Origin: Actinomycetes bacterium
GTDB lineage: Bacteria > Actinomycetota > Thermoleophilia > Solirubrobacterales > Solirubrobacteraceae
Direction: 5' to 3'
DNA length: 64,000 nt
Assembly (NCBI GenBank): GCA_037131165.1
Contig: JBAXRO010000002.1
Location: 6,144 to 70,143 of the forward strand
Within the stretch, counting starts at the first letter, position 1, and every line of letters starts with the position of its first letter. A model generated the notes under the pieces. That model was not told the DNA's origin, did not search any database, and saw nothing but the letters and a program-made list of their open reading frames with translations. The position numbers and the translations under genes were made by a program. This document shows positions 3,000-59,478 of this stretch, piece after piece.

Positions 3000-3656
3000 A
3001 TGGAGCGGCCACCGATGATGGTACGGGTGAAGCTGTTCGCCGGCCTTCGCGAGCGGGCAGGCACCGACGAGATCGAGCTCGAGCTCGAGCCGGGGGCCAC
3101 CACCGACGACCTGATCGAGGCGCTCGGCGACGTGACCGAAGGGGTCCGCTGCGTCGTGGCAGTCAACCGCGAATACTGCGGCCCGGGGACGACCATCTCC
3201 CCCGGTGACGAGGTCGCGCTCGTGCCGCCGATCTCCGGCGGCGCCGGCCCATCGGTGAGCGTCGGACCCGAACCGATCGACCCCGCCGAGCTGATGCGCC
3301 TCGTCGGCGATCCGGCAGCCGGTGCGATCGTCACCTTCACCGGAACGACCCGCGAGGTCGAGTCGCTCGACTACGAGGCCTACCTCGAGATGGCGACCGA
3401 ACGGATCGAGCGGATCTGCGAGGAGGTCTCAACCCAACACTCCCTGGCAGCGATCGCGGCGGCCCATCGGACCGGCACAGTGGCGCTGGGAGAGCCTTCC
3501 GTCGTCGTCGCCGTCTCGGCCCCCCATCGGCCCGAGGCGTTCGCCGGAGCGCGAGAGGCGATCGACCGGATCAAGGCCGAGGCCCCGATCTGGAAGGTCG
3601 AGGTGGACGGAGCCGACCGCCGCCGCGTGGAAGGAACCCTGCCCCCGGTCGAGTGA
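3000..3656 (+). CDS. fused molybdopterin synthase MoaD-MoaE (MoaX-like)
   Basis: The N-terminal part (M)MVRVKLFAGLRERAG..ISPGDEVALVPPISGG is a MoaD fold ending in Gly-Gly. The rest is MoaE: GAIVTFTGTTREVESLDYEAYLEMA..HRTGTVALGEPSVVVAVSAPHRPEAFAGAREAIDRIKAEAPIWKVE. Alternative starts are ATG 3015 and 3018. The upstream part of track ORF 2439-3656 is antisense to the mutase gene. Confidence 0.8.
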   Translation: MERPPMMVRVKLFAGLRERAGTDEIELELEPGATTDDLIEALGDVTEGVRCVVAVNREYCGPGTTISPGDEVALVPPISGGAGPSVSVGPEPIDPAELMRLVGDPAAGAIVTFTGTTREVESLDYEAYLEMATERIERICEEVSTQHSLAAIAAAHRTGTVALGEPSVVVAVSAPHRPEAFAGAREAIDRIKAEAPIWKVEVDGADRRRVEGTLPPVE

Positions 3657-3681
3657 CCGGCCTCCGCGGCAGCGGGAGTGC

Positions 3682-4215
3682 CTAGAGCGCTCCGCCGGCA
3701 GCACCCGGGGCAGTCATGTCTCCGCCCTCGCCGGCGCCGTGCTCCCGGGCGACCCAGTCCTCAACCTGGAGGACGTCGTTCTCGCCACGCTGCACGGCAG
3801 TCAGGAGAGTGGACATCGTCGCAACCTCCTCGACCTGCTCCTTGAGGAACCACTGGGTGAACTGCTCGCTGACGAAGTCACCGTCCTCCCGGGCCGTCCG
3901 GGCGAGCGCGGTGATCTGCTCGGTGACCTTCTTCTCCTGGGCGAGCGCGATCTCAACCGGCTCGACGATGCCAGTGAAGCTCGTCCGCGGCGCAGCCACG
4001 GCCGGGACGACTACCTCGGCGTCGGCGTCGAGCAGGTACTGGACCATCATCATCGCGTGGTTACGCTCTTCGACCGCCTGGCGGTAGAAGAAGCCGGCCA
4101 GCTGCGGCAGCGAATCGCCGTCGTAATGGACGGCGACGGCGATGTACTGCTGCGAGGCGCCGAACTCGTAGGCGATCTGCTCGTTGAGCTGAGCAGCGAA
4201 TCGGTCTGATGCCAT
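3682..4215 (-). CDS. ftn: bacterial non-heme ferritin (BfrB/Ftn-like)
   Basis: 177 aa with a ferritin-like helix pattern: [54 protein letters not shown] Shine-Dalgarno about 9 nt upstream. Confidence 0.8.
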
Positions 4216-4284
4216 TTCTGCGGACTCCTATCCGGTCGGGGCAGGTTCGCGTTCATCGTAGGGGCTGGTTGCCCCGCTGAGCGT

Positions 4285-5235
4285 ATGGTGTCCTCCATGC
4301 CGACTTCATTGGTTACCGGCGGAGCCGGGTTCCTCGGCTCGCACCTCTGCGAGGCGCTGCTGGCGCGCGGTCATCGGGTGATCTGCGTCGACAACCTCGA
4401 GACCGGGTCGCTGGCCAACATCGCCCACCTGCGCCAGCCCGAGTTCGTCCACCTGAACATCGACATCATCGAGCCGTACCAAGTGGACGGCGAGATCGAC
4501 TTCGTCTACCACCTGGCTTCGCCCGCATCCCCGATCGACTACCTCAGGCTTCCGCTCCACACCCTGAAGGTCGGCTCCTACGGCACCCACCACACGATCG
4601 GCCTCGCCAAGCACAAGCGCGCCCGGTTCCTGCTGGCGTCGACCTCCGAGGTATACGGGGACCCCAAGGAACACCCCCAGCACGAGACCTACTGGGGCAA
4701 CGTCAACCCGATCGGCCCTCGCGGCGTCTACGACGAGGCCAAGCGGTATGCCGAGGCGCTGACGATGGCCTACCACCGCCAGCAGGGAGTCGACACTGCG
4801 ATCGTCAGGATCTTCAATACCTACGGACCCCGGATGAGGGCGCACGACGGCCGGGCGATCCCGACCTTCCTCCGCCAAGCCCTGCTCGGCCGTCCGCTTA
4901 CGGTGTTCGGGGACGGAAGCCAGACGAGGTCGTTCTGTTACGTCGACGACCTGGTGGCCGGCCTGATCGCACTCGCCGAGTCGGGAGAGCACGAGCCGGT
5001 CAACATCGGCAACCCCAACGAGTTCACGCTGCTCGAGGCAGCCGAGGCAGTCAGGAGGGTCACCGGTGCATCGTCGGAGATCGTCTTCGAGCCGCTGCCG
5101 ACCGACGACCCGCAGATCCGCCAGCCCGACATCACGCGGGCCCGGGAAGTGCTCGGCTGGGAGCCGACCACCGAGCTCGAGGAAGGCCTCCGGCTGACCC
5201 TCGCCAGCTCAGGAATCGAGCGCCTCACCAGCTGA
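4285..5235 (+). CDS. uxs: UDP-glucuronate decarboxylase (UDP-xylose synthase), SDR family
   Basis: [12 protein letters not shown] Rossmann motif, then [41 protein letters not shown] and [10 protein letters not shown], all typical of UXS. ATG 4297 is an alternative start. Confidence 0.8.
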
Positions 5236-5314
5236 CCGCAATCGCGGTTCGCGACGGGTACGGCCTACGACCGTAACCGGTCAGGGTTGCACCCGCACCC
5301 ACCGTGTCTGTAAC

Positions 5315-6868
5315 TTGGAGGCGGGGGTGTATTCAGTCCCGAGGGAGAGACGAGCGATCAGCGACCAAGGCATCAGCGAGGCGGGTTCGACCCGCACCGA
5401 ACGGGCCGGGCAGGCGGAAGCACCGGTGACCAACGGCTCAGGCCCCGCGACCAAGCGTGTCGGGCGTGACATCCGCTCGGGCAATGTCCCGACTCTGGCC
5501 CGCCTCCTGCACAAGCGGACCCTGCGGGCGATCGCCCGGGTCGCGATCCTGCTGGCCAGCGACTACCTCGCGATCGCATCGGCCCTGATCGGCTGGCTGG
5601 CTCTCAAGGCTTGGCTCAAGGGCGACTTCGATGCCGCGCTCGTCCGCGAACAGGTCAACAGCTACCTGACCTTCGCCTACCTCGTCTCGGTACTGATGCT
5701 CGCCCGCCACGACCTGTACAACGAGAGGGCAAGGCGCCCCGGCCTGCCCTCGATCGTCAACGCCCTCTTCCAGGCGACGGTCGTCACTCTGATCTTCGCC
5801 CTCGCCAACGGCGAGAAGTTCAACTCCTACTCGGTCTTCATCGGCGCGCTCGGCTTCGCGATCGTCACCGTCACGACGGCGCGAGCGCTCGTCGACAGGG
5901 GCACGGGCCGTCTGAGTGCCGAGGCCGGTCTGGCCCGCAAGGCACTGGTGGTCGGGACCGGCGACCACGCAGCGTCGGTCGCAATCGCGCTCGGCGAATC
6001 CAACCGCTGGCCACTCGAGGTGATCGGCGGCCTCACCGCACCGGAGGACGTGGTCGCGAAGCTGCGGCGCGGCAGCATCGACGCGGTGATCATCGCCGAG
6101 CCCGAGCTGCCACAGGAACAGGTCGTGCTCATGGCGGACGAATGCCACCGAAAGGGAGTGGAGGTGCACGTCGCCCCGACGACGATGGAGATCCTCCTGC
6201 AGCGCGGCCAGTTCCGCCCCGGGATGGCGGTTCCGCTGTTCACGCTCGACGCGCCGACCTTCGACGGGTTCAACTTCGCGATCAAACGGGCGTTCGACCT
6301 GATCGGGGCGATCGTCCTGCTGGTACTGCTCAGTCCGACCCTGCTGATCGTGGCTTTGGCCGTGAAGCTGACCTCGAAGGGGCCCCTGCTTTACCGCTCG
6401 ATCCGGCCGGGAATCGGCGAGCAGCCGTTCGCCTGCCTGAAGTTCAGGACGATGTTCGACGACGCCGACTCGCGGATGGACGACCTCGAGAGCCTCAACG
6501 AAGCCAGCGGCGCACTGTTCAAGATCCGCAAGGATCCGCGAGTGACGCCGATCGGGCGGATGCTGCGGCGGTTCTCGATCGACGAACTCCCGCAGCTGCT
6601 GAACGTACTGAGGGGCGAGATGAGCCTCGTCGGTCCGCGTCCCCTACCCGAGCGCGACTTCAGACTGCTCGAAGATTGGCACCGTCAGCGCTACCAGGTG
6701 CTGCCCGGGATCACTGGCCTCTGGCAGGTCTCCGGTCGCTCGGATCTCGACTTCGACGACCTCGTGCGACTCGACTTCGTCTACGTGGAGAGGTGGTCCG
6801 TGGGCCTCGACCTGCTGATCCTGCTGAAGACGTTTCCGGCAGTCCTGTCGCGACGCGGCGCGTACTGA
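5315..6868 (+). CDS. polyprenyl-phosphate glycosyl-1-phosphate transferase (WbaP/CpsE-type bacterial sugar transferase)
   Basis: C-terminal domain KRAFDLIGAIVLLVLLSP..LKFRTM..KIRKDPRVTPIGRMLRRFSIDELPQLLNVLRGEMSLVGPRP..PGITGLWQVSGRS. The start is uncertain: TTG 5315 is the longest option and GTG 5426 is possible. Confidence 0.8.
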   Translation: MEAGVYSVPRERRAISDQGISEAGSTRTERAGQAEAPVTNGSGPATKRVGRDIRSGNVPTLARLLHKRTLRAIARVAILLASDYLAIASALIGWLALKAWLKGDFDAALVREQVNSYLTFAYLVSVLMLARHDLYNERARRPGLPSIVNALFQATVVTLIFALANGEKFNSYSVFIGALGFAIVTVTTARALVDRGTGRLSAEAGLARKALVVGTGDHAASVAIALGESNRWPLEVIGGLTAPEDVVAKLRRGSIDAVIIAEPELPQEQVVLMADECHRKGVEVHVAPTTMEILLQRGQFRPGMAVPLFTLDAPTFDGFNFAIKRAFDLIGAIVLLVLLSPTLLIVALAVKLTSKGPLLYRSIRPGIGEQPFACLKFRTMFDDADSRMDDLESLNEASGALFKIRKDPRVTPIGRMLRRFSIDELPQLLNVLRGEMSLVGPRPLPERDFRLLEDWHRQRYQVLPGITGLWQVSGRSDLDFDDLVRLDFVYVERWSVGLDLLILLKTFPAVLSRRGAY

Positions 6869-6894
6869 CCCCGCGAGTCCGTCATCATCAGGGC

Positions 6895-7854
6895 ATGGCC
6901 CTGCGTGAACGGATCAACATCTCGCCTGGGAGGTACAGGACTGTCACCCGTGTCGCTCTCGCGGCGATGATCGGGATCGTCTTCACGGGTGCGGCAGTCA
7001 GGCTGACCGGCTCAGGCCTCGGATGTCCCGATTGGCCCAAGTGCTTCGGCGGTGTGATCGCCCCTGCCGAGACGCCGGCGATCATCGAGTACTCGAACCG
7101 GCTGCTCACCGGGGTCGTGGCGGCCGCCGCAATCCTCGCCGCAGTCCTCGGGTTCTTCAGGCGCCCCTATCGCAGGGAACTGGAGATCCTCGCCGTGCTG
7201 CTGCCACTCGGGGTACTGCTCCAAGTGCTCCTCGGCGCACTCACGGTGATGACCGAACTCCACTTCGGCCTCGTGATGGCGCACTACATCGTGTCGATGG
7301 TGCTCGTGGACGCTGCCTTCGCGCTGGCTTGGTGCGCGACATACGAGCCGGGTGACCGCCCGCGAGCCAAGGACCGACTGGGCGTCTGGTCGGTGCGGGC
7401 GCTGCTCCCGCTCGGCGCCCTGACCGTCTCCGCCGGCACGGCTGCGACCGCAGCCGGCCCGCACGCCGGAGCGCGCAGCACCGGCGAGCTCGTGCCGCGC
7501 CTGCGGGTCTTCGGCGACGACACACTGCTCTGGATCGTCCAGCGGCACGGGGCGCTCGCCGTGGTCTTCGGGCTCGCGACGATCGCTTCGATCCTGATCC
7601 TCAGGCGCGAAGGCGGCGAGCGCCGGGCAGTCAAGCCGCTGCTGGTGGTCGTCGGCCTGTTGGCGGCCCAGGGAGTGATCGGCATCGGCCAGTGGCAGCT
7701 GGAACTGCCCGCCGCGATCGTCTGGGTCCACATCGTCTTCGCAGTCTTCACTTGGCTCGCGGTGCTCTGGTCGGTCGGGGCAGCCGGACTGCTCGAAGGC
7801 GAGTTCGCCCGCTACGGCAAGCGTCGGGCAGACGGCGCCGCGCTGAAGGCCTGA
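6895..7854 (+). CDS. ctaA: heme A synthase (CtaA/COX15)
   Basis: In-frame ATG inside the 747-aa track ORF. MALRERINISPGRYR..AAVRLTGSGLGCPDWPKC, followed by multiple His-containing TM helices. The upstream 428 codons of that ORF are an Arg-rich shadow of the sugar transferase gene. Confidence 0.8.
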   Translation: MALRERINISPGRYRTVTRVALAAMIGIVFTGAAVRLTGSGLGCPDWPKCFGGVIAPAETPAIIEYSNRLLTGVVAAAAILAAVLGFFRRPYRRELEILAVLLPLGVLLQVLLGALTVMTELHFGLVMAHYIVSMVLVDAAFALAWCATYEPGDRPRAKDRLGVWSVRALLPLGALTVSAGTAATAAGPHAGARSTGELVPRLRVFGDDTLLWIVQRHGALAVVFGLATIASILILRREGGERRAVKPLLVVVGLLAAQGVIGIGQWQLELPAAIVWVHIVFAVFTWLAVLWSVGAAGLLEGEFARYGKRRADGAALKA

Positions 7855-7861
7855 GGCCACG

Positions 7862-8779
7862 ATGGACCCCGGGATGGCTCTGGGGCTGACGCTCGCTCTC
7901 GGAGCGGCTTTCCTCTTCAACTACAGCTACATGATCCAGCACGGCGCGCTCGAGGGCGGGCCCGAGATCAACTTCCGCCGACCTCTCGGCACGATCCGCG
8001 AGCTGGCCCGCCACAGGCGCTGGATGCTCGGCCTGCTGGTCGGTCTTGTCGGCTTTGTGATGCATGCCATCGCGCTGGGCCTGGCCCCGCTCTCGATCGT
8101 TCAGGCGTTCCTCGCGAGCGGCCTCGTCTTCGCCGTGCCGATGAGCGTGAGGATGGCTGGCCACAAGCTCACGGCGAGGGATACGGCCGGAGCGATCCTG
8201 ATGACGGTTGCGCTGGTGCTGCTCGCCTTCGGCACGGGCGAGCACGGCTCGACCAACGAGTTCGAACCGTGGTCGCTCGGGCTCTATACGGCCGTGACTG
8301 TCGCTTTGGCGATCGGTGCTGCGGCGGCGGTCAGGGGTGAACGCAGGGCCGAGTCGCTCGCCCTCGCAGCGGGCCTCCTGTTCGGCATCGCCGACGCGCT
8401 GATCAACGCCCTCGTCGGCATCGCCTCCGACGGCCTGATCGCCCTGCTCCTGTCCGTTTGGCTCTGGCTCTGCATCGCGACCAACCTCGGCGCTTTCTTC
8501 GGCTGGCAGAAGTCACTTCAGGTCGGCACGACGAAGATCCTCGCGATCGTGGTCCTGATGACCGCAGCTACGAAGATCTCCGCGATCGGCGCCGGGTTCG
8601 CTGTCTTCTCGGATTCACTCGGCGAGACGACCACGTGGAAGGTGGTCCACATCCTCTGCTTCGTGTCGATCGCGATCGCAGGGCTGATGCTCGCACCGGC
8701 CCAGGCCGCGATAACGGCGGCGGCCGAGCTCGATCACGAACACGGGGAAGCGACTCCCCGTCAGGCCGGTCCGAATTGA
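7862..8779 (+). CDS. polytopic integral membrane protein, possibly DMT/EamA-like; function unknown
   Basis: 305 aa, about 9-10 hydrophobic segments, good G/C third-position bias. It lies 7 nt after ctaA. Confidence 0.6.
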   Translation: MDPGMALGLTLALGAAFLFNYSYMIQHGALEGGPEINFRRPLGTIRELARHRRWMLGLLVGLVGFVMHAIALGLAPLSIVQAFLASGLVFAVPMSVRMAGHKLTARDTAGAILMTVALVLLAFGTGEHGSTNEFEPWSLGLYTAVTVALAIGAAAAVRGERRAESLALAAGLLFGIADALINALVGIASDGLIALLLSVWLWLCIATNLGAFFGWQKSLQVGTTKILAIVVLMTAATKISAIGAGFAVFSDSLGETTTWKVVHILCFVSIAIAGLMLAPAQAAITAAAELDHEHGEATPRQAGPN

Positions 8780-9504
8780 CCCTCGCGCTCAGGTCGGTTG
8801 CGCTGGTGGGAGCGATCTCCCTGCTCGGCCACGAGATCCCCAACCATTTCGCCTACCTGGCAGTCGGCCTCGCCATCGGGATCGAGTCGATGGGCATCCC
8901 GATGCCGGGCGAGACCGCCCTGATCGCGGCATCGATCGCATCGAAGACCGGGGATCTCAACATCTACGTCGTGATCGCCGCTGCTGCAACGGGCGCGATC
9001 ATCGGGGACAACATCGGCTACTGGGTCGGCCGCAAGGGCGGGCGCAGGCTGCTGGAACACCCGGGTCCCTTCTACAACAGGCGAATGGCCCTGCTCGTCC
9101 ATGGCGACAGGTTCTTCGAGTCGCACGGACCGAAGGCCGTCTTCCTCGGACGATGGGTCGCGCTGCTGCGGGTGACGGCCGCGGTACTCGCCGGCGCGAA
9201 CCGCATGGACGCGAAGAAGTTCTTCGTCTGGAACGCGCTCGGAGGGGTCACCTGGGCAGTGAGCGTCGGAGTGGTCGGATACCTCCTGGGAGCCACGGGC
9301 GAGAGGCTGATCCACGAGCTCGGGATCTGGGCGGCAGTCGTGGCTGGGATCGCCCTCGTGCTCGTCCTCGGCTACGTCTCGCTGCGCGAACGGAGAGCCC
9401 TGAAAGCCGAGATGAGCGAGGTCGAACAGCGGCTCGAGACGGGCGAGCCGATCGCCGAGTGGCATGATTCGAAGGAGCCAAACAGCGGAGAGGAGCAGCG
9501 ATGA
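8776..9504 (+). CDS. DedA family membrane protein
   Basis: GIESMGIPMPGETALIAA..AATGAIIGDNIGYWVGRKGG..FLGRWVALLRV is the DedA/SNARE-associated signature. The TTG start overlaps the preceding TGA (TTGA). The N-terminal 106 codons of the track ORF are a shadow frame. Confidence 0.75.
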   Translation: MTLALRSVALVGAISLLGHEIPNHFAYLAVGLAIGIESMGIPMPGETALIAASIASKTGDLNIYVVIAAAATGAIIGDNIGYWVGRKGGRRLLEHPGPFYNRRMALLVHGDRFFESHGPKAVFLGRWVALLRVTAAVLAGANRMDAKKFFVWNALGGVTWAVSVGVVGYLLGATGERLIHELGIWAAVVAGIALVLVLGYVSLRERRALKAEMSEVEQRLETGEPIAEWHDSKEPNSGEEQR

Positions 9505-10733
9505 GGATCTTGGTGGTCGGAGCAGGTGGAGTGGGCGAGGCGGTGGCTGCGATCGCCCGACACAGGGACTTCTTCGAGCACATGGTGCTCGCCGACCTCG
9601 ACGCCGACCGCGCCGGATCGGTCGCGAGCCGGATGGGCGACCCGCGGATCACTTCCGCGGCTGTCGACGCCTCCGACGCAAAGGCGATCGCCGCACTCGC
9701 CGGCTCGGAGCGATGCGACGTGATCCTCAACGCCTGCGATCCGCGCTTCAACCCGCCGATCTTCGAAGCTGCCTTCGAAGCGGGTGCCACGTACCTGGAC
9801 ATGGCGATGACCCTCTCCGAGCGCCACCCGGAGCGCCCCTACGAGGAGTGCGGGGTGATGCTCGGCGACGCCCAGTTCGAGGTTGCCGGCAAGTGGGAGG
9901 AGAAGGGCCTGCTCGCCCTCGTGGGAATCGGGGTCGAACCCGGCTTCAGTGACGTGGCGGCCCGTTATGCGGCCGACCACCTGTTCTCCGAGATCGACGA
10001 GGTCGGAGTGCGTGACGGAGCCGATCTGGTTGTCGAGGGCTACGAGTTCGCTCCGACGTTCTCGATCTGGACGACGATCGAGGAGTGCCTCAACCCGCCG
10101 CTGATCTGGGAGAAGGACCGCGGCTGGTTCGTCACGCCGCCGTTCAGCGAGCCCGAGGTGTTCGAGTTCCCGGACGGGATCGGTCCGGTCGAATGCGTGA
10201 ACGTCGAGCATGAGGAAGTGGCGCTGATCCCCCGCTGGATCGAATGCCGCCGGGTGACCTTCAAGTACGGGCTTGGCGACGAGTTCATCGAGGTGCTCAA
10301 GACCCTCAACAAGCTCGGGCTCGACGGGGTCAAGCCGATCCCGGTGCGCGGCCAGATGGTCTCTCCCCGCGACGTTGTCGCCGCCGCGCTGCCGAACCCC
10401 GCGACCCTCGGCGACCGGATGAAGGGCAAGACCTGCGCCGGAACGCTCGTCACCGGCAAGGGCAAGGACGGCTCGCCGAAGGCCGCCTACATCCACCACA
10501 CGGCAGACAACGAGGAGTGCATGGCCAAGGACGGATGTCAGGCTGTCGTCTGGCAGACGGCGATCAACCCGGTGATCGCGATGGAGCTGATCGCCACCGG
10601 CATCTGGAGTGGAGCCGGGGTGCTCGGCCCCGAGGCGTTCGACGCCGTGCCGTTCCTCGACCTGCTGGTCGAGTACGGCTCGCCGTGGGGGCTCAGCGAA
10701 CGCGATCCTGCCAACCCGCAGAAGGCCCTCTGA
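9501..10733 (+). CDS. saccharopine dehydrogenase family NAD(P)-binding oxidoreductase
   Basis: MRILVVGAGGVGEAVA Rossmann motif, ILNACDPRFNPPIFEAAFEAGATYLDMA, 410 aa. ATGA overlap with dedA. Confidence 0.7.
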   Translation: MRILVVGAGGVGEAVAAIARHRDFFEHMVLADLDADRAGSVASRMGDPRITSAAVDASDAKAIAALAGSERCDVILNACDPRFNPPIFEAAFEAGATYLDMAMTLSERHPERPYEECGVMLGDAQFEVAGKWEEKGLLALVGIGVEPGFSDVAARYAADHLFSEIDEVGVRDGADLVVEGYEFAPTFSIWTTIEECLNPPLIWEKDRGWFVTPPFSEPEVFEFPDGIGPVECVNVEHEEVALIPRWIECRRVTFKYGLGDEFIEVLKTLNKLGLDGVKPIPVRGQMVSPRDVVAAALPNPATLGDRMKGKTCAGTLVTGKGKDGSPKAAYIHHTADNEECMAKDGCQAVVWQTAINPVIAMELIATGIWSGAGVLGPEAFDAVPFLDLLVEYGSPWGLSERDPANPQKAL

Positions 10734-55596: not shown

Positions 55597-56805
55597 ATGG
55601 AAGCGGGCGAGCGATCTGATCCCCACCCCGCAGTGGCCGCCTGGCTCCAAATGCTCGAGGGGAACTGGGGGCCGATCTCCAGGCGCGAGAGCGCCGGGGC
55701 GACAGCAGCGGCGATCGCCACCCGCCACGGCGATGCCGGAAAGGCATTCGCCCGGCTCGTGGAGGCTCCCGACAGCAACCGGGAGGACCTCTTCCGGGCG
55801 AAGAACGCGACCCTCGCCCTGAGCATCGACTCGTCGCTCGCCTGGTCGTCGGATCTCTACCGCCTCCAACTCGACCGGCTGGCGCGGGTGATCGAGCGCA
55901 TGCAACCGCGGTCGGTGATCGACGTCGGCTGCGAGCAGGGACTCGTGACCTGCTTCATCGCCTCGATCTCGCCGGCCTCCCGCGTGGTCGGGCTGGACAT
56001 CCGCCCAGAGGCGCTCGAACGGGCCCGGGATCTCGCCGGCGCGCTGGCGATCGGGAATGTCGAGTTCGGCCAATGCGACCTGACCACCGGCAGGACCGAC
56101 CACAGCGGAGCCGACCTCACAGTCACGTCGAGAGCCGTCCTCGGCGAGGCGATCGCCCCGGCCGACGACCGCCCGCCGGAAGTTCTGCCGGGCGAGATCC
56201 CCGCGGAGCCGCAGTGGCGGGAATCGGCCGACATCGCAGCCGGGACTCTCGCCCGGATCACCACACCGGGCGGGATGCTCATATCGATCGAGCGAAGCGG
56301 CACCTCCGGGATAGTTCGCTGGGCGTCGGCCCTGGGGGCGGCCGGGTTCTCGATCGACGGGCGAGTCGAGACTCTCGCAACGGACGAGCCGGGCAACCCG
56401 GGTGAACGGTTCCGGCTGCTTTCGGCTCGGCTCGGCGAGGGGCCGGCTACCCCGCTCTCTCCGTCACTGCTGCTTGGGGCTCCCGCAGAGGCCCCGGAGG
56501 GCGTGACGCTCCACGGCGATCAAGCCGAACGACTGGCACTCGCCGCCCGGCCGATCGGGTCGGTCGAAGCGTGGGAGTGGCCGAACAGCTCAGGTGATCG
56601 CGAACGACTCGAACTCGCGGAGCTCGCGGATGGCGGACTGCTCGAGCTGCGCTGCTCCACCAACGGAGAACGGAGCACCCAGCTTCACGGAGCGCAGGCC
56701 GCAGGCCGGGTGAGGCTTGCCCGCGAACGCGAGCTGGCGGCCCTGGCCGACGGTGAGCCACCGCCGGCCGAGCCGCTGCTCGGGAGCTTTCCCCCGGCTA
56801 GTTGA
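55597..56805 (+). CDS. class I SAM-dependent methyltransferase-like protein with an uncharacterised C-terminal half
   Basis: SVIDVGCEQGLVT (motif I), VVGLDIRPEALERAR (motif II region) and MLISIE. The start is uncertain (ATG 55597). Confidence 0.5.
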   Translation: MEAGERSDPHPAVAAWLQMLEGNWGPISRRESAGATAAAIATRHGDAGKAFARLVEAPDSNREDLFRAKNATLALSIDSSLAWSSDLYRLQLDRLARVIERMQPRSVIDVGCEQGLVTCFIASISPASRVVGLDIRPEALERARDLAGALAIGNVEFGQCDLTTGRTDHSGADLTVTSRAVLGEAIAPADDRPPEVLPGEIPAEPQWRESADIAAGTLARITTPGGMLISIERSGTSGIVRWASALGAAGFSIDGRVETLATDEPGNPGERFRLLSARLGEGPATPLSPSLLLGAPAEAPEGVTLHGDQAERLALAARPIGSVEAWEWPNSSGDRERLELAELADGGLLELRCSTNGERSTQLHGAQAAGRVRLARERELAALADGEPPPAEPLLGSFPPAS

Positions 56806-58474
56806 CGACCCTGAACGCGCCGCGCATGAACGGGTGCACGCGGCAGAAGTAGGTGTAGGTCCCCGCGTTGAGGTTCGACGGGGTCTTCCAGGTCCGCCGG
56901 TTCGCGGCAGCTGTGCCCAACAGCCCGCTCCGGGAGAGCAGTGGGGCGAAGCCGAGCTGGCCGGAATCGAAGGTCTTGGGCCCGTCGGCGAGCGGGTAGG
57001 AGAGCCCGGTGTTCTTGTTACACGGTGCCTTGCAGTCGGTGAGCGAGTGGTAGATCGACTTGTACTGCGCATTGTCGGTGGCAGTGACGTCCGGCGCGTC
57101 GAGGTTGACGAAGGTCAGCTGCCTGCCCTTCTTGACCACCGGTGGGCGCGCCTTCGTACCGGAAAGGCTCAGGTCGCCGTACTGGTAGACGAAGTCCTTG
57201 ATCTTGACCGTGCTGCCGCTCGGGGTGACTCCCTTCGGCAGCCTGGTCGGGTCATTGAGGGTCCGATAGGTGCCGCCGTAGTGCTTGTTCTCCGGGTACG
57301 AACCGTGGGTCGGAGTGCCCTTGTCCCAAGCGATCGAATCGGTGAACGGGTCTGCTCCGACGGTGCTGTCGAGGGCCGTCCAAACGACCATGATCCCCAT
57401 CGACTCGTACCAGTCGGACTTCCTTGTCTCGTAGGTCGCGCTGATCCTGAGCTTGTCGCCCGGCTTGACCTGAACGCGCCAATCCTCGGGCGTGGCCTCC
57501 ATCGCCATGTCCCATGAGATCGGGCCAGCTGGATCCCAATAGACGGCATTTGAGCGGAACGCCCTGGCGCTGTCGGTGAGAGTGCCCGGCTGCGGGCTGG
57601 CGCTCCCGTCCGCTCCGGTCCGCTGGACCTGCAGGTCGGTGTAGAGACCGCCGGGGTGAACGTGGCCGGCCGTGCCGAGCAGGGTCAGGTTGCGATCGGC
57701 GACGTAGACGTTGCGCCGTGGTCCCGACCCGTATGGGTTGGTGAACTGATCCGGGTAGGTCACGGTGCCGTTGAAGCCCATGCCACGGAAGGTGTCGAAG
57801 ACCGGGTATCCGGAGCCGCGCTGGACATCGAGCCAGAGCGGGTAGGCAGGCTTGAGCGATCGACCGAGATCGGAATCCATCGAGACCCAGTCGAGGTCGT
57901 AAACGATCTTGCCCCTGATGGTCGCCGGCGTGAGGTTGTGGATCATGTCGTTGACGTTCCAGACCTGGTCGGAGTAGACCGGGTAGCCGTAGCCGTCGGG
58001 CACCATCGAGATCGTCTTCTCCTCGCCGGCACCGAACGGCAGGTTGAACCCCTGAGGCCGGCCGCTGTTGCGTGGGTCGCTGACGAACCAGACCATGTGG
58101 TGCAGGTGGATGATGTCCGTCCTCGGAACCCGGTCGTTGGCGGGGTTGCTGTCCGAGTCGGCGAGGACGAGGTTCGGCTGCATCCGCTTGAGGTAGACGT
58201 TGCCCGGGGGCTTGGGCAGGGGGCCTGTCAGCTTGTTGATGTTCGCCCCGGGATGGATCGTGATCGGCACCTCGTAGCGAGTCCGCGTGTAGCCCGGCCG
58301 GGGAGGCTCCTGCGCGGGCATCGGGGTGGAGCTCGAAACCGCGGCGGCGGCCGCAGCCTTCTTCGCGGCTGCCGAGCCACTCGCGGCCGAAGCCGTCGAC
58401 GCCGGGCCAATGATCATCGCCACCGCCGTCACGGCGACCAGCGACCGCCCGAGTTGCGTGCTGCTCCGTCGCAT
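56798..58474 (-). CDS. secreted copper protein: PHM/DBH-like monooxygenase motif set fused to a C-terminal amicyanin-like cupredoxin domain
   Basis: ATG 58474 preceded by GGGGGAGAGA. Signal LVAVTAVAMIIGPASTASA. Motifs in order: IIHLHHMVWF, DMIHN, GHVHPGG, YESMGIMVVW. The C-terminus YHSLTDC..GTYTYFCRVHPFMRGAFRVVN has the H, C-x2-H-x2-M pattern. Confidence 0.6.
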   Translation of the reverse strand: MRRSSTQLGRSLVAVTAVAMIIGPASTASAASGSAAAKKAAAAAAVSSSTPMPAQEPPRPGYTRTRYEVPITIHPGANINKLTGPLPKPPGNVYLKRMQPNLVLADSDSNPANDRVPRTDIIHLHHMVWFVSDPRNSGRPQGFNLPFGAGEEKTISMVPDGYGYPVYSDQVWNVNDMIHNLTPATIRGKIVYDLDWVSMDSDLGRSLKPAYPLWLDVQRGSGYPVFDTFRGMGFNGTVTYPDQFTNPYGSGPRRNVYVADRNLTLLGTAGHVHPGGLYTDLQVQRTGADGSASPQPGTLTDSARAFRSNAVYWDPAGPISWDMAMEATPEDWRVQVKPGDKLRISATYETRKSDWYESMGIMVVWTALDSTVGADPFTDSIAWDKGTPTHGSYPENKHYGGTYRTLNDPTRLPKGVTPSGSTVKIKDFVYQYGDLSLSGTKARPPVVKKGRQLTFVNLDAPDVTATDNAQYKSIYHSLTDCKAPCNKNTGLSYPLADGPKTFDSGQLGFAPLLSRSGLLGTAAANRRTWKTPSNLNAGTYTYFCRVHPFMRGAFRVVN

Positions 58475-58638
58475 TCTCTCCCCCCTTCTTGGTCGCGGCA
58501 AGAACGCCACCCTCTCCTGCCCGGATCGTACCGGGAACGAGCCGGTACGCACCAGTTACGGTGCCCCCCCGGAGCGCTGACCGGCCAACTCCGCTTCCGG
58601 CGTGGAATCACCCCCGCCCGTGGCACAATCGCCACTCC

Positions 58639-59478
58639 ATGTTCGACCTGATCAAGGCCGCGATCCCCTTCTTCATTGCACTGATGATCCTCGAGGTCAT
58701 CGCCTACCGGTTCGACCACGAGGACGACAGGCCGGGCTACGACACCCGCGACACGGCGACCTCGCTGACGATGGGCTTCGGCAATGTGGTGATCAACCTG
58801 TTCTGGAAGGTCGCGCTGGTCGCGATCCTCGCAGTCGCCTACGAGGCGAGTCCGCTGAGGATCCCGATGGATCAACCGTGGGCGTGGGTACTGCTGCTGC
58901 TGGCAGACGACCTCTGCTTCTACGTATGGCACCGCTGCAGCCACCAGATCCGGGTCATGTGGGCGGCGCACGTAATCCACCATTCGAGCCAGCACTTCAA
59001 CCTCTCGACTGCTCTCCGACAGGACTGGACGCCGATGTTCAGCCTGCCTTTCTTCATCCCGCTGGCGGTCGTCGGCTTCCCGCCGTGGGCGATCATCCTG
59101 ATGCAGGCGATATCGCTCGTCTACCAGTTCGGCCTCCACACCGAGAAGATCGGGAAGCTGCCGAGGCCGATCGAGTTCGTCTTCAATACCCCATCCCACC
59201 ACCGGGTCCACCACGGTGCCAACCATGGCTACCTGGATCGCAACTACGGCGGTGTGCTGATCATCTGGGACAGGATCTTCGGGACCTTCAGGGAGGAGGA
59301 CGACAGGGTCGTCTACGGGTTGACGAAGAACGTCGACTCCTTCAACCCGTTGAGGGTCGCCACCCACGAGTGGAGCGACATGATCGCCGACGTCCGCTCC
59401 GCTCCCAACCTCAGGACCCGCCTCGGCCACGTCTTCCGCGGGCCGGGCTGGCAACCGACGGACCGCTCCCGGGACTGA
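58639..59478 (+). CDS. fatty acid hydroxylase / sterol desaturase family membrane di-iron oxygenase
   Basis: His boxes HRCSH, HVIHHSSQH and HHRVHHG. Four hydrophobic segments. Confidence 0.75.
   Translation: MFDLIKAAIPFFIALMILEVIAYRFDHEDDRPGYDTRDTATSLTMGFGNVVINLFWKVALVAILAVAYEASPLRIPMDQPWAWVLLLLADDLCFYVWHRCSHQIRVMWAAHVIHHSSQHFNLSTALRQDWTPMFSLPFFIPLAVVGFPPWAIILMQAISLVYQFGLHTEKIGKLPRPIEFVFNTPSHHRVHHGANHGYLDRNYGGVLIIWDRIFGTFREEDDRVVYGLTKNVDSFNPLRVATHEWSDMIADVRSAPNLRTRLGHVFRGPGWQPTDRSRD

Follow-up and report, generated by a model that had tools for sequence, protein, structure and literature searches.

A candidate exported copper oxidoreductase of Solirubrobacterales with a predicted PHM-like fold and a fused type-1 copper domain

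The gene and its product

The stretch of DNA considered here, hereafter the window, comprises 64,000 nucleotides of contig JBAXRO010000002.1 (assembly GCA_037131165.1) from an Actinomycetes bacterium of the family Solirubrobacteraceae, and carries on its reverse strand a gene for a 558-aa protein. In a first-pass annotation made from the letters of the sequence, this protein was read as a copper monooxygenase of the kind represented by peptidylglycine alpha-hydroxylating monooxygenase (PHM) and dopamine beta-monooxygenase (DBH), fused to a blue-copper domain. The features listed there are confirmed, and the reading is supported as regards predicted fold and ligands. As discussed below, the gene product is believed, with moderate confidence, to be an exported three-copper oxidoreductase in which PHM-type copper sites, termed CuH and CuM, are joined to a type-1 (T1) copper cupredoxin.

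The ATG at 58474 is taken as the start codon because this ATG and the ribosome-binding site preceding it, GGGGGGAGAGA, are conserved in locus L001, where the closest ortholog (P0001) is encoded, and because that protein, 89% identical to the window protein, is likewise 558 aa in length; a longer open reading frame (ORF) with a GTG start, extending to 58552, found no support. A signal peptide had been proposed previously, and residues 1-30 indeed display a basic n-region, a hydrophobic core (Kyte-Doolittle 2.5) and an ASA site. The N-termini of the homologs in alignment A1, which holds 37 sequences at 44-89% identity, are alike in that KR, RR or KK precedes a hydrophobic run, and in the AlphaFold2 (AF2) model the predicted local distance difference test score (pLDDT) is below 50 over residues 1-31. 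Judged from these characteristics, the signal peptide is probably of the Sec type and cleaved after ASA. The complete protein contains 11 His and 3 Cys residues.

Conservation of the motifs and proposed ligands

All five motifs named in the first-pass annotation were located, at residues 123-130, 176-180, 270-276, 356-365 and 538-558 (the last being GTYTYFCRVHPFMRGAFRVVN), and the gaps of 53, 92 and 86 residues counted between the ligands are exact (H126 to H179, H179 to H271 and H273 to M359, respectively). In addition to A1, conservation was followed in a larger set of 121 sequences, composed of A1 and the proteins from 80 genome loci and including 119 intact sequences, and in a divergent set, A3, of 29 sequences with 28 divergent representatives at 32-47% identity. 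Throughout A1, residues H123, H125, H126, M177, H179, H271, H273, E357, M359 and H390 are invariant, as are H476, C481, C485, C544, H547 and M550 of the cupredoxin; nine of the 11 His and all three Cys are therefore among the residues that never vary in these 37 homologs, and the motifs are not regarded as a product of chance. The ten proposed copper ligands (H125, H126, H179, H271, H273, M359, H476, C544, H547 and M550) are identical in 119 of 119 intact sequences, the sole exceptions in the set of 121 being the two halves of one frameshifted copy, and the intact sequences of A3 all keep the ligand pattern. H123, an additional His peculiar to the family, is H in 118 sequences and M in 2, and H390 is kept by 120 of the 121 sequences in the larger set and lost in three divergent members.

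The resemblance to PHM and DBH that had been noticed in the residues flanking the ligands stands only in part. HHM..F is a property of the sub-clade to which the window protein belongs and does not hold for the family, since, of the 121 sequences, 10 have M127 and 2 have F130, position 127 being G or A in 110 of 121 and position 130 usually L. Around the Met ligand, where a similarity of the form ..EM.. had been proposed, the window protein reads E-S-M and PHM reads D-E-M.

The cupredoxin is present in every intact family member seen. Short relatives that appeared to lack it proved to be frameshifted translations, and they are not regarded as real variants because their Arg/Ala/Pro-rich tails are typical of frameshifts in high-GC DNA. 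Two kinds of A1 member carry an insertion or an extension (P0010, P0014, P0019 and P0054, and P0013, P0078, P0096, P0104 and P0107): the first kind has a 40-80-residue Arg/His-rich low-complexity insertion in a domain-II loop, between residues 284 and 302 of the window protein, and the second a C-terminal extension of about 100 residues behind a Pro-rich linker, with a CxxxxxC motif.

Predicted fold

The AF2 model, built from the 37-sequence alignment, has a pLDDT of 84.9 and a predicted template modelling score of 0.84, and contains about 21 beta-strands before residue 370 plus a further small beta domain. When this model was compared with the PDB using Foldseek, ranks 1-20 were occupied by 19 PHM entries and human DBH (4zel), with E values of 1.7e-8 to 1.1e-6 and a probability of 1.0; the alignments run to about 365-407 columns on targets some 300 residues long, at about 11-13% identity to PHM and DBH. 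After rank 20, three further PHM entries are interleaved with NirK (6hbe) and a Nitrosopumilus multicopper oxidase (9cck), and double-jelly-roll capsid proteins appear at E of about 1e-4 only. The N-terminal region, for which the first-pass annotation had allowed that an unrelated fold might emerge, is placed by the structure search in the PHM/DBH fold over about 360 residues, as two consecutive beta-sandwich domains. Among the PHM structures the highest template modelling (TM) score, 0.47, is to 6ala, a closed, citrate-bound conformer (PMC12164859), the canonical open 11-A form scoring lower; because the best score is to the closed conformer, the two domains of the model may lie closer together than they do in resting PHM.

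For a comparison of strand order, PHM was also modelled by AF2 (pLDDT 92.7). In both models the third CuH His (H179 in the window protein, H172 in PHM) is the penultimate residue of strand 7. The HxH motif is found in both at the C-terminal end of a 9-10-residue strand, from which a 3-4-residue turn leads into an equally long partner, and, counting back from the GD anchor, this strand is the fourth; the Met, again in both, precedes domain II's last long strand by 1-2 residues. The earlier ascription of HxH...M to CuM is made probable by these places in the strand order, together with the invariance of the proposed ligands.

Sequence-level relationship to PHM

The comparison of sequences made use of a PHM reference verified against PDB entry 1sdw and of a 22-sequence PHM alignment drawn from database matches. 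Profile-profile alignment with hhalign gave P=0.0026 for domain I against domain I of PHM and P=0.0098 for domain II against domain II, the mismatched-domain controls giving 0.05 and 0.18. In domain I, LHHMVWF is paired with V(H)HMLLF, VPDGYGYPV with LPKGVGFRV and IHN with VHY, which brings H125/H126/M127/F130 onto H107/H108/M109/F112, 'P.G.G' onto 'P.G.G' and H179 onto H172 of PHM, the PHM ligand set being that given in PMC12164859. The assignment of HH...H to CuH in the first-pass annotation is supported by this register, and the pattern expected of such a site, an HH pair with a third His some 50-65 residues later in domain I, is present as the invariant H125, H126 and H179. The invariant M177 is aligned with PHM Q170, which is part of a proposed H108-Q170 electron path (PMC12164859).

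In domain II, the alignment is robust only for VKPGDKLRISATYET against VTFGDILAARCVFTG (P=0.0014). The pattern of a CuM site, HxH with a Met some 70-85 residues later, is represented by the invariant H271, H273 and M359. On the models, these residues are the probable equivalents of the PHM ligands H242, H244 and M314, because the strand orders agree and because the positions that hhalign put under H242 and H244 (N309 and V311) are variable in the family.

The C-terminal cupredoxin

By its sequence, the C-terminal domain is a divergent cupredoxin with the short ligand loop of the amicyanin type, and is not considered amicyanin proper because its scores against the NCBIfam amicyanin and Pfam Cupredoxin_1 models are below threshold. 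Its best sequence matches among PDB chains are to amicyanin, at E 0.03 for the window protein alone and 2.5e-4 when the family profile is used. The NCBIfam amicyanin model TIGR02657 gave E 0.0011 and 19.3 bits against an equivalog cutoff of 110.2, and Cupredoxin_1 gave 11.8 bits against 27 for the window protein; 32 of the 37 A1 members match the latter, all below threshold. The amicyanin-like C-terminus that had been noted in the first-pass annotation is recovered in the alignment of FCRVHPFMRG with CTPHPFMRG of amicyanin, and the T1 ligand set His...Cys-x2-His-x2-Met is provided by H476, C544, H547 and M550. Unlike amicyanin and related single-domain cupredoxins (TIGR02657; PF00127, PF13473), which are free carriers, the domain is part of a 558-aa protein, and it differs further in its His-to-Cys gap of 68 residues with an inserted loop and in an invariant CxxxC beside the His ligand. 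This C481-x3-C485 pair, located five residues after H476 and comprising two of only three Cys in the protein, is probably a disulfide.

Comparison with known copper proteins

PHM, DBH and tyramine beta-monooxygenase (TBM), which are the non-coupled binuclear, ascorbate-dependent copper monooxygenases (PF01082 plus PF03712), share with the window protein the two consecutive beta-sandwich domains, as predicted for the latter, and a setting that is either extracytoplasmic or within the secretory pathway's lumen. In both cases HH...H belongs to domain I and precedes HxH...M of domain II, and the strands that bear these motifs match in position, for HxH...M only probably so. The differences are likewise several. 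The ligand gaps are 53/92/86 in the window protein and 64/70/70 in PHM, with longer loops in the former, which also carries the extra invariant H123 and E357, the conserved H390, and M177 in place of Q170. Where the animal enzymes rely on soluble ascorbate, the window protein has a fused T1 copper domain, and its family is bacterial (Actinomycetota), whereas PHM and DBH are animal proteins. As modelled, the protein is PHM-like in its fold and metal sites and lies outside the curated PHM/DBH family.

A catalytic copper module followed by a C-terminal T1 cupredoxin is also the layout of NirK 6hbe and the Nitrosopumilus multicopper oxidase 9cck. Their catalytic modules, however, are cupredoxin-fold trimers with T1/type-2 or trinuclear sites, in contrast to the catalytic module of the window protein, which is predicted to have the PHM fold and a non-coupled pair of His3 and His2Met sites.

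Family size and distribution

More than 1371 relatives of the window protein were found in a search of 5.8 billion proteins; none has precomputed Pfam domains, and they bear only the public names "hypothetical protein" or "plastocyanin". A HMMER scan with the N-terminal 361 residues against 1.84 billion representatives returned 753 matches at E<=1e-3, with 112 at E<=1e-30, and the family extends to about 750 clusters at 50% identity. A relative is encoded in at least 546 genomes by a pattern scan of one genome per species, and the 80 genomes among the matches listed are all metagenome-assembled genomes belonging to Solirubrobacterales, Thermoleophilaceae, Acidimicrobiia or unclassified Actinomycetota. 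Relatives were also searched for in a plasmid collection, where none were found. At locus L022 (+, 3633-8614), three paralogs stand in tandem (3633-5225, 5316-6896 and 7004-8614), and at locus L058 (+, 7001-10058) a second, frameshift-split copy lies directly downstream of the first; local duplication therefore expands the family in some Solirubrobacterales genomes.

A longer architecture is seen in P0296 and P0404 (1211 aa; metagenome and JGI contigs), in which the PHM-fold domains and cupredoxin are followed by a PQQ/BamB-like beta-propeller at residues 621-770 (PF13360 E 1e-18, PF01011 E 2e-11) and then by a second Copper-bind domain at residues 1132-1211 (PF00127 E 4e-8). This fusion may be a clue to the redox partner.

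No described bacterial enzyme with such an architecture was known to the author of the first-pass annotation, and the open-access literature yielded no description of a bacterial PHM-like enzyme, of a cupredoxin-fused enzyme of this kind or of a link between Nod19 and PHM. The novelty of the fusion is provisional, as the literature searched was open-access and most subscription journals lie outside it. What is provisionally recognised here is a large family of soil Actinomycetota hitherto annotated only as hypothetical or plastocyanin.

The link to SURNod19

SURNod19 or MtN19-like proteins are secreted proteins of plants and fungi, and SURNod19 (PF07712) is the only Pfam family that any member of the present family reaches. 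P0268 scores 25.7 bits against a gathering score of 25 (E 6.3e-6), with a match in domain II that spans HxH through Met, and weaker collinear matches are given by P0253 (E 7.9e-4), P0273 (0.012), P0296 (0.016) and P0297 (0.11); those of P0273, P0296 and P0253, like that of P0268, fall within domain II. The window protein and the family consensus sequences gave no match to PF07712.

The function of SURNod19 is stated as unknown (PMC9632046, PMC10326430). Bean Nod19 is a target of the copper-economy microRNA miR398, and plant Nod19 responds to copper status and is linked to stress (PMC3882225). Both groups are thus secreted and connected by the threshold-level match of one member; they differ in that plant NOD19 is described with a signal peptide and a C-terminal hydrophobic helix, a cupredoxin going unmentioned (PMC9632046, PMC10326430), and in that the window protein is itself unmatched to PF07712. 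The tie between the families looks like distant homology, and suggests that SURNod19 may be a family of PHM-fold copper proteins.

Proposed function and competing explanations

For the proposed three-copper oxidoreductase, we infer the filling of the sites with copper, the sequence in which electrons pass, the activation of O2 and the type of reaction as follows. Domain I would hold a His3 CuH-like site formed by H125, H126 and H179, domain II a His2Met CuM-like site formed by H271, H273 and M359, and the C-terminal cupredoxin would bind T1 copper through H476, C544, H547 and M550. The T1 copper would take single electrons from an extracytoplasmic donor, for which a c-type cytochrome or another carrier linked to the respiratory chain is a candidate, and would hand them to the CuH-like site and then to the CuM-like site, at which O2 would be bound and a C-H bond of the substrate hydroxylated or oxidised. 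The substrate is probably something other than a glycine-extended peptide. Ascorbate is the electron donor of animal PHM and DBH, and it is reasonable to infer that the fused cupredoxin acts as a self-contained electron supply; because it is fused in every intact member, the cupredoxin is probably an obligatory point of redox entry, or possibly of exit.

Several results weigh against this proposal. In sequence comparisons, the Pfam models Cu2_monooxygen (PF01082) and Cu2_monoox_C (PF03712), by which the first-pass annotation proposed to check the N-terminal part, were unmatched by the window protein and 37 A1 members at E<=1, by 29 of 29 A3 sequences at E<=0.01 (28 of them also singly, at E<=1) and by three consensus sequences at E<=10; true PHMs in the same protein database all have both domains. 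The N-terminal region was without a match in a sequence-profile search of the PDB, phmmer and hmmsearch giving only amicyanin. HH-suite probabilities stay low and do not exceed 12-18%, a single PHM sequence gave no match in hhalign, the global hhalign alignment with PHM collapsed, and GHVHPGG was set one hairpin too early rather than on the HTH of PHM. In structure, the TM scores to PHM are 0.36-0.47 (target-normalised) with a root-mean-square deviation of about 10 A, which reflects either a differing orientation of the model's domains, the explanation tentatively favoured, or a likeness looser than the E values suggest. With Cys lacking from the first 480 residues, none of the disulfides of PHM is present. 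In PHM, R240, N316 and Y318 bind the carboxylate and backbone of the substrate (PMC12164859), and the motif-anchored equivalents of these residues are A269, I361 and V363, A269 being A in 114 of 121 sequences; glycine-extended peptides are accordingly an unlikely substrate as far as the sequence goes. Finally, the neighbourhoods of the gene in the 80 loci show, from clade to clade, no conserved redox partner and no conserved gene related to a substrate.

Three other explanations have been weighed, and are taken here in order of likelihood. The first, which is itself unlikely, retains the fold and the binding of copper but not the monooxygenase: the protein would serve in copper handling, stress or electron transfer, or as a small-molecule oxidase or reductase, with the T1 copper either feeding a His3 type-2 site in the manner of NirK or acting as an electron exit. 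That SURNod19 is the only Pfam family reached speaks for such a role, given the ties of plant Nod19 to stress and copper responses (PMC3882225). T1 copper together with His3 copper is moreover the layout of NirK, an example of which, 6hbe with its C-terminal cupredoxin, is in the Foldseek list; the PHM substrate-binding residues are missing, and the invariant non-PHM residues H123, M177, E357 and H390 hint at a modified site. However, the full set of His3 and His2Met on separate domains, which is characteristic of O2-activating non-coupled binuclear enzymes, is invariant in every intact sequence. The matches to NirK have TM scores of only 0.13-0.18, suggesting that they stem from the cupredoxin part only, and no denitrification or copper-resistance genes are conserved nearby.

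A second explanation, in which the resemblance to PHM is convergent or fortuitous and the protein is an unrelated double beta-sandwich whose His and Met residues are structural or bind another metal, is regarded as quite improbable. The weak profile statistics (hhalign P 0.003-0.05, probability <=18%), the TM scores below 0.5 and the double-jelly-roll capsids in the Foldseek list are what such a protein might produce, but PHM and DBH fill the top 20 with E values about four orders of magnitude better than those of the capsids, the domain-I alignment matches all three CuH ligands, along with several residues beside them, to those of PHM, matched-domain hhalign comparisons outscore the mismatched controls, and the ligands occupy equivalent positions in the strand order. 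The permanent fusion to a T1 domain also makes a redox function of copper the simplest reading. The third, a true bacterial PHM ortholog that alpha-hydroxylates glycine-extended peptides, for example in the amidation of secreted or ribosomal peptides, is very improbable, for although PHM chains are the best structural matches and the sub-clade of the window protein retains HHM..F, the residues R240, N316 and Y318 are replaced, PHM disulfides and Pfam matches are lacking, and no PAL lyase or precursor-peptide gene is conserved nearby.

Wider significance of the proposed oxidoreductase

A further claim can be made only tentatively, being possible but somewhat doubtful: that the protein is the founding member of a large family of non-coupled binuclear copper monooxygenases in bacteria that are 'self-wired', a fused blue-copper domain replacing ascorbate as reductant of the PHM-type CuH and CuM. 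If this is true, the catalytic design of PHM and DBH would not be an animal invention but common to soil Actinomycetota, and by way of SURNod19 it would probably extend to secreted proteins of plants and fungi. The members of the family could then represent a common, unrecognised extracellular oxygenase activity in soil, and the weak link to SURNod19, a family of plants and fungi with no function assigned since the 1990s, suggests that its role may be oxygen chemistry dependent on copper.

In PHM and DBH, CuH and CuM are about 11 A apart, and how electrons cross this gap is still debated, long-range transfer and an open-to-closed binuclear mechanism having both been put forward (PMC12164859). 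With a T1 copper, the entry of electrons into CuH and their onward passage from there to CuM could be triggered and followed optically, and a bacterial relative whose covalently attached T1 copper can be seen spectroscopically would offer an expressible system for timing both electron entry and the transfer between the coppers.

Features of the gene and its neighbourhood

The coordinates of the gene and of its proposed features are collected in Table 1.

Table 1. Gene, domains and motifs of the window protein, with positions in the window.
Feature	Position	Strand	Basis
Whole gene, 558 aa + stop: signal peptide, PHM-fold domains I and II, conserved linker, cupredoxin	56798..58474	-	ORF list, ortholog length, translation check
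Ribosome-binding site GGGGGGAGAGA, immediately 5' of ATG	58475..58486	-	Conserved in window and ortholog locus L001
Predicted signal peptide, residues 1-30 (MRRSSTQLGRSLVAVTAVAMIIGPASTASA)	58385..58474	-	Hydrophobicity profile and AxA site
Ala-rich helix and Pro-rich linker, residues 31-60, restricted to the sub-clade of the window protein	58295..58384	-	Alignment A1; model helix 35-47
Domain I, predicted beta-sandwich, residues 61-216, CuH-like	57827..58294	-	Foldseek PHM/DBH; hhalign; strand order
HLHHMVWF, residues 123-130; H125/H126 aligned with PHM H107/H108	58085..58108	-	H125, H126 invariant 120/120; aligned to PHM HHMLLF
DMIHN, residues 176-180; H179 aligned with PHM H172, invariant M177 at PHM Q170 position	57935..57949	-	Aligned to PHM QVHY
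Domain II, predicted beta-sandwich, residues 217-372, CuM-like	57359..57826	-	Foldseek; anchor VKPGDKLRISATYET vs PHM VTFGDILAARCVFTG
GHVHPGG, residues 270-276; H271/H273 proposed equivalents of PHM H242/H244	57647..57667	-	Invariant; strand position
YESMGIMVVW, residues 356-365; M359 proposed equivalent of PHM M314; E357 invariant	57380..57409	-	N-terminal edge of last long strand in both models
Conserved linker, residues 373-419: DPF, T-H390-G, E395, GG motifs	57218..57358	-	pLDDT ~80-95
Cupredoxin (type-1 copper) domain, residues 420-558	56801..57217	-	Amicyanin PDB matches; NCBIfam; Pfam Cupredoxin_1; Foldseek
IYHSLTDCKAPC, residues 474-485: H476 N-terminal T1 His; C481/C485 CxxxC	57020..57055	-	Invariant
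FCRVHPFM, residues 543-550: T1 loop C544-x2-H547-x2-M550	56825..56848	-	Residue-by-residue alignment to amicyanin; invariant

The neighbours described in the first-pass annotation are real, namely a divergent FA_hydroxylase gene (PF04116, E 2e-28) and a convergent methyltransferase gene with an 8-nt overlap (56798-56805). The functional link that had been hinted at found no support, as these neighbours are found only beside the 89% ortholog and in 0 of 78 other loci. The FA hydroxylase, the methyltransferase, a PhaC-like hydrolase and DsbB were all considered as partners and set aside, since they recur only beside that ortholog. With no partner kept from one clade to the next, the gene acts as a stand-alone unit.

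Among the 80 loci, 22 (L012, L021, L024, L026 and 18 others) carry a divergent ccmE-ccmF cluster about 0.5-3.5 kb upstream, made up of ccmE (PF03100, with a CPSKY motif), ccmF (PF16327, PF01578) and a gene for a 102-aa membrane protein. The cluster points to a cytochrome c partner, but only as a faint hint because the loci that carry it mostly belong to one clade, with a median identity of 68% within the group and 49% to the rest. A 106-aa ORF encoding a Cys4 zinc ribbon lies directly upstream on the same strand in 21 of 80 loci, and the other recurrent neighbours are generic ABC exporters and WS/DGAT genes.

In the window, a DsbB-like gene (PF02600; 54763-55338, reverse strand) lies together with a small DUF5993 gene two genes from the copper-protein gene, and the same is seen at L001:10992-11868. 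The DsbB-like gene might serve the C481/C485 pair; it is not conserved beside the family elsewhere.

On the divergent side, the mechanically called FA_hydroxylase ORF (58489-59478, forward strand) starts at TTG 58489. The gene itself is taken to be shorter, leaving a divergent promoter region of 164 nt, because the called gene of the ortholog is 279 aa and an ATG stands at 58639 (MFDLIKAAIP...). Within this 164-nt intergenic region, a perfect 8-nt inverted repeat, CGTACCGG-N7-CCGGTACG, is located at window positions 58527-58549 and is partly conserved at the locus of the 89% ortholog.

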